Positions 1,622 to 5,847 of a DNA stretch of 32,000 bases are shown here, piece by piece (the first letter of the stretch is position 1; each line of letters opens with the position of its first letter). A program made the translations under genes and the position numbers. The notes beneath the pieces were generated by a model. That model made no database searches, was not told the origin of the DNA, and saw only the letters and a list, made by a program, of their open reading frames with translations. This stretch comes from an uncultured Alphaproteobacteria bacterium (GTDB lineage: Bacteria; Pseudomonadota; Alphaproteobacteria; Rs-D84): assembly GCA_963931495.1 (NCBI GenBank), contig OZ007020.1, positions 480,001 to 512,000 on the forward strand. The letters are read 5' to 3'.

Positions 1622-1650
1622 ATACGGGGCGTTCGCCCCGTATTTACGTT
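1622..1650 (+). terminator. Intrinsic terminator of clpB
   Basis: A 9-bp stem ATACGGGGC/GCCCCGTAT with GTTC loop is followed by TTTACGTTT. Confidence 0.8.
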
Positions 1651-1678
1651 TGCATTTATATTTAATAAATTGTATAAT
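1650..1678 (+). promoter_or_regulatory. Sigma70-like promoter (TTGCAT-17 bp-TATAAT)
   Basis: The -35 TTGCAT is at 1650-1655 and a perfect -10 TATAAT is at 1673-1678, with a 17-bp spacer and TG just upstream of the -10. Confidence 0.4.
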
Positions 1679-1691
1679 TCCAGTTGCAGTG

Positions 1692-1814
1692 ATGTGTTGT
1701 TGCTGCGGGGCGTCACAACCTCTTATCAAGTGTCTGAGTCAAGACAAAAATATATCTCCAACCATATGGTTGGAGGGACCCTGGAATATATTGAATACAG
1801 GTCGCAATTCTTGA
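1692..1814 (+). CDS. Candidate 40-codon leader mini-ORF beginning M-C-C-C-C
   Basis: ATG TGT TGT TGC TGC opens the ORF at 1692. It reads through the palindrome and stops at TGA 1812-1814, 15 nt before box 3. The SD is weak, so this is speculative. Confidence 0.2.
   Translation: MCCCCGASQPLIKCLSQDKNISPTIWLEGPWNILNTGRNS
1756..1775 (+). promoter_or_regulatory. Perfect 20-bp palindrome CTCCAACCATATGGTTGGAG (boxes 1 and 2 of the putative attenuator)
   Basis: Read directly. In RNA it would form an 8-bp stem with an AUAU loop. Confidence 0.6.
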
Positions 1815-1828
1815 TAATTGTTGTGAAC

Positions 1829-1837
1829 CTCCAACCA
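1829..1837 (+). promoter_or_regulatory. Third CTCCAACCA box (potential antiterminator partner of 1767-1775)
   Basis: It is an exact repeat of box 1 and a perfect complement of TGGTTGGAG at 1767-1775. It overlaps the terminator left arm by 5 nt. Confidence 0.5.
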
Positions 1838-1866
1838 CTTGAAATTATTTCCGGTGGTTTTTTGTT
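1833..1866 (+). terminator. Intrinsic terminator/attenuator hairpin upstream of the small lipoprotein gene
   Basis: AACCAC(T)..GAAA-TTA-TTTC..GTGGTT gives 7 bp, a mismatch, then 4 bp. It is followed by TTTTGTT at 1860-1866. Confidence 0.55.
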
Positions 1867-1885
1867 GCAAAAATGGGGGTTAAAG

Positions 1886-2095
1886 ATGAAAAAGATATTT
1901 ATCGCCATTGTCGCGTGCATGATCTGCAATGTTGGTTGGGATAAACAACTGATAGAACAAGAGAAGCAAAAAGACTTGAAAAACAATTATGACGCTGTTA
2001 TAATGGGACTAAATAGCAAAGCGCCAGTTGAACAGGTGATAAAAATGCCGCCAACTGTGCAGCGATTAATGGAAGCGATGTCGGATAAAAAATGA
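1886..2095 (+). CDS. Small lipoprotein (69 aa); the signal peptide MKKIFIAIVAC carries a lipobox
   Basis: A GGGGG SD lies 6 nt upstream of ATG 1886. The lipobox is I-V-A-C. The N-terminal extension in the 141-aa track ORF is probably not coding. Confidence 0.5.
   Translation: MKKIFIAIVACMICNVGWDKQLIEQEKQKDLKNNYDAVIMGLNSKAPVEQVIKMPPTVQRLMEAMSDKK
1906..1940 (+). repeat. Direct repeat copy 1 (35 bp, 34/35 identical to 2936-2970)
   Basis: The sequence is CATTGtCGCGTGCATGATCTGCAATGTTGGTTGGG. The perfect core is 1912-1940. It encodes ...ACMICNVGW in frame. Confidence 0.9.
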
Positions 2096-2250
2096 AAAAA
2101 AACTTATTATGTTTATTTGGTTTTTTTCTTATAGTGGCGTTGTCACTGGGGTATGTGTCTTATAAAGATGACCAGTTGTATTCAGCGTGTATGCATAGTT
2201 TAGAAGGCTATTACACGCCAGAAGAAGCACAAATAAGGTGCATGGTATAA
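2092..2250 (+). CDS. Small (52 aa) single-TM/secreted peptide, ATGA-coupled to the upstream gene
   Basis: The sequence is MKKNLLCLFGFFLIVALSLGYVSY... The start overlaps the upstream stop (ATGA). It is below the track's 60-aa cutoff. Confidence 0.3.
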   Translation: MKKNLLCLFGFFLIVALSLGYVSYKDDQLYSACMHSLEGYYTPEEAQIRCMV

Positions 2251-2270
2251 AAAAACACATAATAAACAAG

Positions 2271-2296
2271 CCGTCCGAAAAGACGGTTTATTTATT
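2271..2296 (+). terminator. Intrinsic terminator
   Basis: CCGTC-CGAAAA-GACGG is followed by TTTATTTATT. Confidence 0.6.
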
Positions 2297-2312
2297 ACAA
2301 CAAAAACTTTTC

Positions 2313-2345
2313 TTTTACAAAAACAAACATTTTTACAAAAACAAA
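2313..2345 (+). repeat. A-rich direct repeats TTTTACAAAAACAAA x2 (18-bp period), with degenerate copies either side
   Basis: Read directly at 2313-2327 and 2331-2345. Related ACAAAAAC-type strings occur at about 2294-2307 and 2360-2373. Confidence 0.5.
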
Positions 2346-2453
2346 ATATTCCAATTTTTCCCAAAAACAAACACGCATGGGGTCGCGTGAAACAAAGTAT
2401 AACTCCGCATTTATTCGTTTAACCAAGGATTTCATATACAAAAGGAGTTTACT

Positions 2454-3491
2454 ATGGCAGGGAATCCGAACTTTGGTAACTTGTATTCTACAAGTACCGA
2501 CAATTATCTGCCGAAATTGAAAGACAACTATACGTCTATGTCGCGTTTGTTGGATTTCTTGAAAAAGGCAGGCAACATCAGAACCGAAGACGGTGGTGTT
2601 GAAATTTTGGAAAATATTGAATTTGCCGAAAACGGCGCGTACAACCGTTACGATGGTGCACAGGCGTGGAATTTGGAAAATAAAAAATTCGCAACCGCCG
2701 CATCGTATGCCCGCAAAAAAATTGCGGTCACCATGGTTGTCACCGGGTCCGAAATAATGGCCAACAGTGGTAAATCACGCAAAATTGACCTGATTGCCAG
2801 CAAGATTAAAAACGGTGCAAAAACATTGCAAAATGGTTTGGCGCACGACGTTTATTCTGATGGTACAGACGCGTTGCAAATCGGTGGTTTGCAATATTTG
2901 GTATCCGATACACCAAATACCGGTGTTGTTGGTGGCATTGACGCGTGCATGATCTGCAATGTTGGTTGGGGTGTTAATTGGATTTGTGAAATAGACCAGT
3001 GTGATAAAGGAACTTGGGCGCTAGATGATAATCCTTATAATAACCCATGTATGGTTTGCCCAGCCAACACATATCAAGATGGCTGTATTAATCCTGGTGA
3101 AGAGTGTACCCCGTGTCCCGCGGGGACCGGCACGATTGGTGATACGGCGGCCCATCACGACAGTATTGATGATTGTATTCCGATGGAAACAGAAGAAATA
3201 TCTTGTAATTCGGGATATTATTTACCCGCAAACAGTCAATCTTGCACACAATGTCCGAAAAATTCATATTGCCCTGGGGGAACATTTACCCCGACAACCG
3301 CAGATTCTGGGATAACACAATGTCCCGATAATATGTATTCACCACTGGGGTCAGATAGTGCGGATGATTGTGGGCGCGTGTTACATATTGGCGAATATAT
3401 TTTATATCTGCGCACGGCAAAACTGACCGTGCCATCACTGAATGTCAAGATTGGCAACACGATATATTACGGTGATATGTTCCCCGCGTAA
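2454..3491 (+). CDS. Chimeric ORF: phage major-capsid-like N-terminal fragment (aa 1-163, no Cys) fused to a Cys-rich C-T-x-C-P repeat domain (16 Cys in ~180 aa); probably a fusion pseudogene
   Basis: There is a strong AGGAG RBS. The N-terminus (NPNFGN...IGGLQYLVSDTPNTGVVGGID) resembles podovirus major capsid proteins as I recall them. Composition switches exactly at the 35-bp repeat. There is no signal peptide. Confidence 0.6.
   Translation: MAGNPNFGNLYSTSTDNYLPKLKDNYTSMSRLLDFLKKAGNIRTEDGGVEILENIEFAENGAYNRYDGAQAWNLENKKFATAASYARKKIAVTMVVTGSEIMANSGKSRKIDLIASKIKNGAKTLQNGLAHDVYSDGTDALQIGGLQYLVSDTPNTGVVGGIDACMICNVGWGVNWICEIDQCDKGTWALDDNPYNNPCMVCPANTYQDGCINPGEECTPCPAGTGTIGDTAAHHDSIDDCIPMETEEISCNSGYYLPANSQSCTQCPKNSYCPGGTFTPTTADSGITQCPDNMYSPLGSDSADDCGRVLHIGEYILYLRTAKLTVPSLNVKIGNTIYYGDMFPA
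2936..2970 (+). repeat. Direct repeat copy 2 (35 bp)
   Basis: The sequence is CATTGaCGCGTGCATGATCTGCAATGTTGGTTGGG, offset exactly 1030 bp from copy 1. It also encodes ACMICNVGW in frame. Confidence 0.9.
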
Positions 3492-3530
3492 TAATTAATA
3501 TCACCGCCATGGGGCCCAGGGTAAATGAAA

Positions 3531-3550
3531 AATCGCCCAATTGGACGATT
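3531..3550. terminator. Weak hairpin between convergent genes
   Basis: AATCG-C-CC AATT GG-A-CGATT is flanked by an A-run on the + strand, which is a T-run for the minus-strand ABC gene. Confidence 0.35.
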
Positions 3551-5484: not shown

Positions 5485-5795
5485 CAAGGCAAAGTTCTGG
5501 GGTTGTAGCTCAGTTGGTAGAGGGCGGGTTGCTTTGTAACGCATGGGACGCCACACGATTGAACAGCAATCTTGACAAGGCAAAGTTCTGGGGTTGTAGC
5601 TCAGTTGGTAGAGGGCGGGTTGCTTTGTAACGCATGGGACGCCACACGATTGAACAGCAATCTTGACAAGGCAAAGTTCTGGGGTTGTAGCTCAGTTGGT
5701 AGAGGGCGGGTTGCTTTGTAACGCATGGGACGCCACACGATTGAACAGCAATCTTGACAAGGCAAAGTTCTGGGGTTGTAGCTCAGTTGGTAGAG
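5485..5795 (+). repeat. Tandem array of 3 perfect 91-bp units plus a 38-bp partial fourth unit; each unit holds the first 24 nt of tRNA-Ala
   Basis: Units start at 5485, 5576 and 5667, with a partial unit at 5758. GGGGTTGTAGCTCAGTTGGTAGAG recurs at 5499, 5590, 5681 and 5772. No mismatch was seen by eye. Confidence 0.95.
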
Positions 5796-5847
5796 CACCT
5801 GCTTTGCAAGCAGGGGGTCGTCAGTTCGAGTCTGATCAGCTCCACCA
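5772..5847 (+). tRNA. tRNA-Ala (anticodon UGC), CCA encoded
   Basis: A 76-nt cloverleaf: acceptor GGGGTTG/CAGCTCC with G3:U70, anticodon arm CCTGC-TTTGCAA-GCAGG, T-loop TTCGAGT. Confidence 0.9.

Follow-up and report, generated by a model that had tools for sequence, protein, structure and literature searches.

A probable transcription attenuator built on a bistable RNA, from a multi-copy leader family upstream of exported-protein genes in Alphaproteobacteria

Leader-peptide attenuators of the trpL and hisL type use overlapping 1:2, 2:3 and 3:4 helices to place a terminator just upstream of the gene. The PyrR-dependent pyr attenuator of Bacillus has three layers, a terminator, an antiterminator and an anti-antiterminator, and the T-box, BglG/LicT RAT and ANTAR systems rely on antiterminators that are stabilised by an effector. 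Cyclic di-GMP (c-di-GMP) riboswitch classes with terminator platforms often precede genes for surface proteins, and Alphaproteobacteria have small RNAs with anti-Shine-Dalgarno (anti-SD) sequences, among them AbcR and the alpha-r14 'cuckoo' family. Here we describe a structured RNA of about 180 nt encoded between clpB and a lipoprotein gene of an uncultured alphaproteobacterium (lineage Rs-D84; assembly GCA_963931495.1, contig OZ007020.1, forward-strand positions 480,001 to 512,000). This 32,000-nt stretch is referred to as the window, and all coordinates are window positions on the + strand unless stated otherwise. Positions 1684-1866 are likely to form the 5' leader of the lipoprotein mRNA and, acting in cis through a bistable RNA, to attenuate transcription.

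The switch centres on three short boxes, the second complementary to the first and the third, and the third overlapping the terminator. These give the leader the same overlapping-helix topology as trpL and hisL. However, the family to which it belongs has no conserved leader open reading frame (ORF), Shine-Dalgarno (SD) sequence or codon run, its genes encode exported proteins rather than amino-acid biosynthetic enzymes, and its sensor is a conserved multi-helix RNA domain. With the PyrR attenuator it shares the three-layer logic, in that a sequestering hairpin (here box 1 with box 2) holds the antiterminator strand and lets the terminator form. There is no sequence similarity or Rfam match to the pyr element, and the terminating fold is already far more stable without a factor; hence, unlike PyrR, an effector would be expected to favour read-through. 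A stable terminator opposed to a weaker antiterminator that needs an effector, and many copies per genome that include serial copies, are features in common with T-box, RAT and ANTAR elements, although no model of these matches and both architecture and gene set differ. Terminator-type riboswitches likewise have a covarying junction domain, a closing strand that overlaps the terminator, and surface or exported proteins among their genes, whereas the gene set here offers no metabolic clue and both conformers have local hairpins backed by covariation. The resemblance to AbcR and alpha-r14 lies in CCUCC motifs, tandem copies and bacterial class; in contrast to those RNAs, the leader has no Rfam match, pairs its CCUCC intramolecularly and is fixed in position before an ORF.

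The leader and its family

A sequence-only reading of the window had proposed an attenuator between clpB and the lipoprotein gene, comprising a promoter, a mini-ORF, three boxes (CTCCAACCA/TGGTTGGAG) and a terminator, and inspection of the sequence found each of these where it had been placed. The sigma-70-type promoter (1650-1678) consists of TTGCAT (1650-1655), a 17-nt spacer and TATAAT (1673-1678), and an overlapping reading, TTTGCA-18-TATAAT, scores 10/12 with a promoter scanner. Judged from this sequence, transcription would start near 1685. The mini-ORF begins with the ATG at 1692, opens ATG TGT TGT TGC TGC and extends for 40 codons to a stop at 1812-1814 (product MCCCCGASQPLIKCLSQDKNISPTIWLEGPWNILNTGRNS). 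The box motif CTCCAACCA occurs at 1756-1764 (+; box 1), 1767-1775 (-; box 2) and 1829-1837 (+; box 3) and at no further site in the 32 kb, against 0.16 occurrences expected; none of 100 shuffles reached three. A terminator hairpin at 1833-1859 (-10 kcal/mol) is followed by TTTTTTGTT. The lipoprotein ATG at 1886 is only 20 nt beyond the terminator T run, which leaves no space for a separate promoter.

The folding check suggested by the sequence-only reading revealed strong structure. The predicted energy of 1685-1870 is -64 kcal/mol (z-score -4.9), none of 200 shuffles being equally stable, and the terminating fold is more stable than one in which box 2 is forced to pair with box 3. The minimum-energy fold has a small 5' hairpin, a long interrupted stem that closes a four-way junction, and the terminator; the box1:box2 hairpin is one arm of the junction.

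We traced four homologues of the lipoprotein to contigs and found each behind a homologous leader of about 180 nt, in four further contexts: one follows a DUF488 gene, one a BOF gene and one tatA, and the fourth precedes rpsL. The pattern AACCTCCNNCCACN{8,20}GTGGTTTT matched more than 120 metagenome contigs, and its matches include 79 distinct leaders that carry, 45-69 nt upstream of box 3, 8 nt exactly complementary to that box. From homologous leaders we built a covariance model, R1, of 178 positions and 49 pairs. Window positions 1684-1863 align to model positions 1-178 with 146 bits (E ~6e-44), a score for a sequence that is itself in the R1 seed alignment; paralogues outside the seed reach 100-160 bits. 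There is no second copy in the window. R1 identified 114 copies in the collected loci, which comprise metagenome contigs from the rumen, the human gut and elsewhere, GC-rich contigs and a single Frigidibacter plasmid, whereas 66 unrelated clpB loci used as a control gave only two matches, of ~18 bits. Several kinds of copy could not have been selected by the search pattern, namely second copies on contigs, serial copies, GC-rich versions (43-58 bits) and the plasmid copy; copies found by R1 alone also end in a hairpin and a T run. The element can be dense, with at least three copies on a 144-kb and at least three on a 225-kb human-gut contig, and at least four on a 107-kb contig. Its distance from the promoter is fixed: of the 65 leaders with a promoter score of 9/12 or more, 55 have 4-5 nt between the end of the -10 hexamer and model position 1, the window value being 5 nt.

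Leaders also occur in head-to-tail series of two to four (L145, 5267-6019; L121, 873-1288; L117, 326-739; L166, 414-827; L094, 399-802; L152, 3190-3626). The series in L145 has four copies separated by gaps of 10-36 nt, and in some series, such as those of L121, L117 and L166, the second copy has a promoter-like site of its own. The plasmid copy (L212, 2429-2637) is carried by the mobilizable plasmid pcai42B of Frigidibacter mobilis (NZ_CP012663.1). It is a divergent member scoring 32 bits, with a much enlarged P5 arm, directly upstream of a gene for a protein with a prepilin-type N-terminal cleavage/methylation domain.

Searches of Rfam 15 at the gathering score returned no match except tRNAs in the window or in 34 related loci, and at E values up to 10 the region 1550-1950 gave only weak minus-strand matches on the clpB terminator. 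The Rfam families tested that have no +-strand match include SAM-I, T-box, PyrR, ANTAR, c-di-GMP and the alpha-r small RNAs. The clpB terminator itself (1621-1646; GGGGCGTTCGCCCC between A and T runs) is bidirectional in form and is the source of all the weak minus-strand look-alikes (sraA, L20 leader and others). By blastn, the leader matched no phage record and the gut-type leader no plasmid; the GC-rich leader matched the Frigidibacter plasmid only, which R1 confirmed. A pattern scan of IMG/VR viral contigs gave no copies, its two chance matches being rejected by R1. Full-text literature searches with the box sequences and related terms returned primers and unrelated papers only, and the main text of a human-microbiome structured-RNA catalogue holds nothing similar; the leader may stand unnamed in large candidate catalogues. 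The leader thus belongs to a large RNA family that is absent from Rfam 15, a new family with a known kind of mechanism.

Four other identities for parts of the region were tried and rejected. The motifs CUUAUCAAG and GGAGGGA hinted at a degenerate SAM-I riboswitch, yet the region is matched by no Rfam SAM model and its helices are different. ARAGORN finds nothing at the leader that would correspond to a tRNA-like cloverleaf. A minus-strand terminator at 1775-1756 is merely the box1:box2 palindrome, and an internal promoter, TTGAAT-16-GATAAT (1791-1818), overlaps conserved RNA motifs and would give a transcript that still holds the terminator.

Covariation of two alternative folds

In the R1 alignment of 114 sequences, 95.4% of the 5,382 cells of the terminating fold are paired and 42 of its 49 pairs show compensatory changes, whereas sliding the partners by 1-3 columns lowers pairing to 38-45%. 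Seven elements each covary: the hairpins P0, P3 and P5, the long-range helices L:L' and m:m', the box1:box2 hairpin and the terminator. We cross-checked the fold with pair counts on a plain MAFFT alignment, with RNAalifold on that alignment and with a partner-swap test. RNAalifold independently recovered P0, L:L', box1:box2 and the terminator. When partners were swapped between leaders, duplex stability fell from -9.6 to -2.3 kcal/mol for m:m', from -5.9 to -1.2 for L:L' and from -10.8 to -3.6 for P0.

From the 5' end, the terminating fold starts with P0 (1686-1706), also seen with RNAfold, in which 1686-1693 pairs with 1699-1706 around a GUGUU loop (1694-1698); all eight pairs are compensatory, 96.6% of cells are paired, and the loop reads GUGUU in 44 of the 114 copies. 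The next stretch, 1707-1722, holds the 5' strand of the basal helix and comprises segment a (GGGG, 1707-1710), L (1711-1719) and a' (CCUC, 1719-1722). Segment a can pair either locally with a' or with the CCUCC that opens box 3, and L pairs with L' (1820-1826; 98% paired, six of seven pairs compensatory). Segment m (1723-1730, UUAUCAAG) pairs with m' (1810-1817) through six modelled pairs, every one compensatory, with all four Watson-Crick types represented. Within the closed stem lie P3 (1731-1746), a hairpin of variable length (5/5 pairs covarying, 90% of cells paired), an A-rich linker (1747-1754), and the box 1, loop and box 2 hairpin (1755-1776). This last hairpin has an energy of -12.2 kcal/mol and is 96.8% paired, with six of eight pairs compensatory; it acts as the anti-antiterminator. 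P5 (1777-1803) has a covarying stem and a loop with the conserved motif GAAUAUAUUGAAUA(A/C)(G), and in some members an extra hairpin is inserted in this loop. The 3' strands, b (1804-1809), m', b' (1816-1821) and L', occupy 1804-1826 and are followed by AACC and box 3 (1826-1837), which in this fold is divided, the 5' part being paired to segment a and the 3' part built into the stem of the terminator (1833-1868, including the T run).

In the alternative fold, box 2 forms a helix with all of box 3 (97.6% paired, five of nine pairs compensatory) as an antiterminator, and two small hairpins form, A and B, both also with compensatory changes. Hairpin A is the local pairing of GGGG with the CCC or CCUC just downstream (a:a'); 97-98% of its cells are paired, by GC, GU and AU types, and its variants include GAGG/CCUC, GGAG/CUCC and GAAG/CUUC. 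Hairpin B pairs b with b' (CACUAU with AUAGU), its first four pairs being 93% paired and all compensatory; one of them is UA in 52 copies, AU in 42 and CG in 10. Hairpin B overlaps m' and L' by 2 nt each and holds m' in its loop with practically no 3' linker, and would therefore compete with m:m' and L:L'.

The boxes change jointly. In L087 they read CTCCTGC / GCAGGAG / CTCCTGCC, in L098 and L113 CTCCTGA / TCAGGAG / CTCCTGACC, and in L141 CCAGC / GGGCTGGA / TCCAGCCC. Among copies found independently of the pattern, a further joint change gives CCAGT / GGACTGGA / TCCAGTCC, GC-rich forms also occur, and the terminator arm changes along with box 3. G-U pairs are frequent (for example, GU in 59 and 88 copies at single pairs) and would be A-C mismatches in the other strand, and reverse-strand R1 scores are far weaker, at 25 bits or less; hence, the +-strand RNA is the selected molecule. 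The topology claimed by the sequence-only reading, 1:2 plus terminator against 2:3, is upheld, since the boxes covary and box 3 overlaps the left arm of the terminator, whose stem begins at 1833. We conclude that the covariation supports two mutually exclusive folds, and we read the two helix sets as alternative states of the leader.

Conserved motifs that remain unpaired, namely the P0 loop, GGGGUGU, the A-rich linker and GAAUAUAUUGAAUAAG in the P5 loop, are candidate contact sites for an effector. We also considered whether the P0 loop pairs with AACAC in the A-rich linker, and dropped this because it is inconsistent across members. Beyond the terminator, the interval 1874-1888 contains the SD sequence GGGGG (1875-1879) and the start codon (1886) of the lipoprotein gene. 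AACCUCCA (1825-1832) can pair with UGGGGGUU (1874-1881) at -12.2 kcal/mol, a pairing to which we attach no function.

Downstream genes and the lipoprotein locus

The family precedes genes for exported proteins in gut and soil Alphaproteobacteria. In nearly all copies an ORF on the same strand, with an SD sequence, begins 10-160 nt past the terminator. An N-terminus resembling a signal peptide is present in 61 of 82 downstream products, compared with 119 of 399 background long ORFs from the same loci (odds ratio 6.8, p = 8e-14), as scored with a crude heuristic. Most of the products have no Pfam domain. Those identified are the Listeria-Bacteroides repeat (Flg_new; eight), Ephrin_rec_like (six), beta-flower (two), trypsin (one), an XRE-type helix-turn-helix (at least two) and an EcoRI-type methylase (two); Pfam matched no family of amino-acid biosynthesis among the downstream products. 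This gene set points to signal-type control of surface or exported proteins rather than to metabolite feedback.

In the window, the lipoprotein gene opens at 1886 with a signal peptide but is interrupted by an insertion of 1030 bp. Flanking the insertion is a 35-nt direct repeat (1906-1940 and 2936-2970), which codes for the end of the signal peptide. The insertion is present in several independent assemblies (L001 and L004) and absent from L002 and from protein P0011. The sequence-only reading had called the product formerly Cys-rich, and this is borne out by the uninterrupted allele in those other strains, L002 and P0011; the reconstituted protein has 16 Cys in 191 amino acids (aa). The right part of the insertion (2454-2950) codes for a segment of a phage major head protein (residues 4-164 of phrog_9953, E = 3e-37) in frame with the Cys-rich body, giving a chimeric 345-aa ORF at 2454-3491. 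We collected 52 homologues of the lipoprotein (P0001-P0052), which have a conserved signal peptide and C-terminus around a mosaic, variable middle. Its Cys-rich (Ephrin_rec_like) members vary between strains while the signal peptide and the C-terminal ~45 aa are near-invariant, and they occur in five genomic contexts including the window locus. This suggests that the Cys-rich lipoproteins are a diversifying family of surface proteins.

Among the reference genomes, the closest relatives of the window ClpB come from two rumen metagenome-assembled genomes (86-88% identical); the next matches, at ~59%, are mostly from Alphaproteobacteria. The leader is identical in the strain variants L001, L002 and L004. 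In the nearest other species (L007), the whole block 1650-3550 is absent, that is, everything between the clpB terminator and a convergent ABC-transporter gene. Hence, we dropped the idea that the leader is syntenic with clpB; it goes with the lipoprotein gene.

Read in frame with the lipoprotein ATG (1670-2095), the leader is free of stop codons, and public gene calls extend the protein upstream through the RNA. Such extended calls, an annotation artefact, are found for P0004, P0007, P0008, P0011, P0020 and P0040 (for example, MLLLRGVTTSYQ...). Elsewhere in the window, positions 5485-5847 hold 3.4 exact tandem copies of a 91-nt unit containing the 5' part of tRNA-Ala(UGC), the last of which runs into an intact tRNA-Ala gene (5772-5847).

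Proposed mechanism and rival explanations

The predicted energies favour termination. For the window leader, the terminating fold has -64.0 kcal/mol against -49.6 with box2:box3 forced; before the 3' arm of the terminator is made, the values are -54.0 and -45.3. Across 85 leaders, the median difference is 12.8 kcal/mol in favour of the terminating fold, and the terminator is present in the minimum-energy fold of 76. As isolated duplexes, box2:box3 averages -19.2 kcal/mol over the family and box1:box2 -14.5. With the terminating fold favoured by ~13 kcal/mol in these models, the default state is probably OFF, and an effector would be needed for read-through. The decision point seems, on the modelled energies, to be whether a long 5'-3' zipper (m:m', L:L' and GGGG:CCUCC) closes before box 3 invades.

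We propose that, on the way to termination, the 5' half of the leader zips to the 3' half through GGGG:CCUCC, L:L' and m:m', with box1:box2 formed, closing a four-way junction whose side arms are P3 and P5. The 3' part of box 3 would then be free for the terminator, and RNA polymerase would halt at ~1866, ahead of the start codon at 1886. For read-through, box 2 would pair with the entire box 3 and so take away the left arm of the terminator, while GGGG would fold back on CCUC as hairpin A and b would pair with b' as hairpin B. An effector, which could be a protein, a small molecule or another RNA, would tip the leader towards read-through; leader-peptide translation and cysteine supply would play no part in switching. 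The window leader is one member of a family with many copies, whose main targets would be exported and surface proteins. What the analysis shows is the two folds, their covariation, the family and its association with such genes; that termination takes place in vivo, which way regulation runs, and that there is an effector and of what kind, we infer.

Several points weigh against it. Read-through, like the start of transcription and a 3' end at ~1866, is a prediction, and the effector is postulated; given a bias of ~13 kcal/mol, the element could mainly make a stable 180-nt RNA. The gene that would be regulated is itself disrupted in the window. Most family sequences were gathered with a pattern that demands box 3 and a terminator, and the R1 alignment was fitted to the terminating fold, and each of these makes the pairing percentages too high; copies found independently of the pattern and counts on the MAFFT alignment lessen this concern without removing it. 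Lastly, a:a' and b:b' are short (3-5 bp) and may either exclude the long helices or coexist with them in a pseudoknotted fold.

The sequence-only reading had favoured ribosome-mediated attenuation: ribosomes translating the M-C-C-C-C mini-ORF would sense the supply of Cys-tRNA and so gate the Cys-rich lipoprotein. The mini-ORF at 1692-1814 and its four opening Cys codons are real, as are the 1:2, 2:3 and terminator topology and the 16 Cys in the intact allele of the downstream protein. However, AUG UGU UGU UGC UGC (1692-1706) coincides with the last 2 nt of the P0 5' arm, the GUGUU loop and the whole of the 3' arm, so that the codons belong to a conserved hairpin. Only six of 91 distinct leaders have at least two Cys in codons 2-6, and all six read them from the P0 loop. 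The boxes are conserved and covarying in homologous loci, as that reading expected, whereas the mini-ORF with its Cys run is not. The ORFs that begin with ATG in the leaders are anywhere from 3 to 61 codons long, and neither start, frame, stop nor SD sequence is conserved; the commonest AUG in the family stems from the conserved AUGGGGUGU and opens ORFs of 3-57 codons. The window AUG is buried in the P0 stem and lacks an SD sequence; the sequence-only reading had itself called the SD weak. A Cys run is missing from close paralogous leaders that precede genes of this lipoprotein family (L087, L089 and L091), and Cys-rich products are only a minority among the many, otherwise unrelated, genes downstream of the family. 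A leader-peptide mechanism is unsupported, given the absence of a conserved start, SD sequence, frame and stop, and the conservation data speak against it. The link to the Cys content of the product is coincidental, and we reject Cys-tRNA sensing as scarcely credible.

A trans-acting small RNA, with the CCUCC boxes as anti-SD seeds and the downstream gene incidental or affected secondarily, fits the conserved promoter and strong terminator, termination as the thermodynamic default, and the likeness of the boxes to anti-SD and SD sequences (CCUCC and GGAGG). Tandem anti-SD small RNAs occur in Alphaproteobacteria, and the tandem copies of this family, in which the second can have its own promoter (L121, L117 and L166), resemble them. 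We nevertheless consider an independent small RNA unlikely: copies are consistently oriented and 10-160 nt from the downstream ORF, too tight for another promoter, the CCUCC boxes are paired and unexposed in the terminating fold, and covariation maintains the box2:box3 helix, which destroys the terminator and is sensible only if read-through is regulated. The terminated leader may have a dual role, also acting in trans. Copies that are numerous, dispersed, built on inverted repeats and, in the window, part of an accessory block missing from the nearest related species would also suit a feature of the DNA, either a dispersed palindromic repeat (MITE- or REP-like) or a segment invertible between the inverted boxes 2 and 3. 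This is highly improbable, however, as G-U pairs are frequent and strand-specific, position relative to promoter and start codon is fixed, the box2-box3 segment is inverted in none of the 114 copies, and helices such as m:m' and P0 stay paired despite wholly different sequences, which argues for selection on RNA structure and not for repeat copying.

An attenuator of the lipoprotein mRNA thus remains our preferred reading, and its wider class can be suggested more tentatively. The leader couples a structured, conserved domain to an expression platform, as riboswitches do. It is possible, although we hold this with more doubt than confidence, that it represents a ligand- or factor-sensing switch, of a hitherto undescribed riboswitch-like or factor-dependent antiterminator class, that coordinates a large secretome regulon. 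Such a switch might conceivably sense one common signal, for instance an RNA-binding protein, an RNA acting in trans or a second messenger. Present in 3-4 copies or more per 100-225 kb of contig, it would then, speculatively, turn on much of the exported and surface repertoire of gut-associated Alphaproteobacteria.

Recognising the family corrects annotation, since gene callers read the leader as an N-terminal extension of downstream proteins. Because each of the two folds has independent support from covariation, the leader is a clean natural test case for bistable RNA switches, and the copy on a plasmid of Frigidibacter mobilis, a named and sequenced strain, offers a route to experiment. If confirmed, the family would be one of few cis-regulatory RNA families with many copies per genome, with an unusual link to exported and surface proteins instead of metabolism. 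Most carriers are metagenome contigs and assembled genomes from rumen and gut, where the leader would provide a handle on the proteins that these bacteria display to a host or partner cell.

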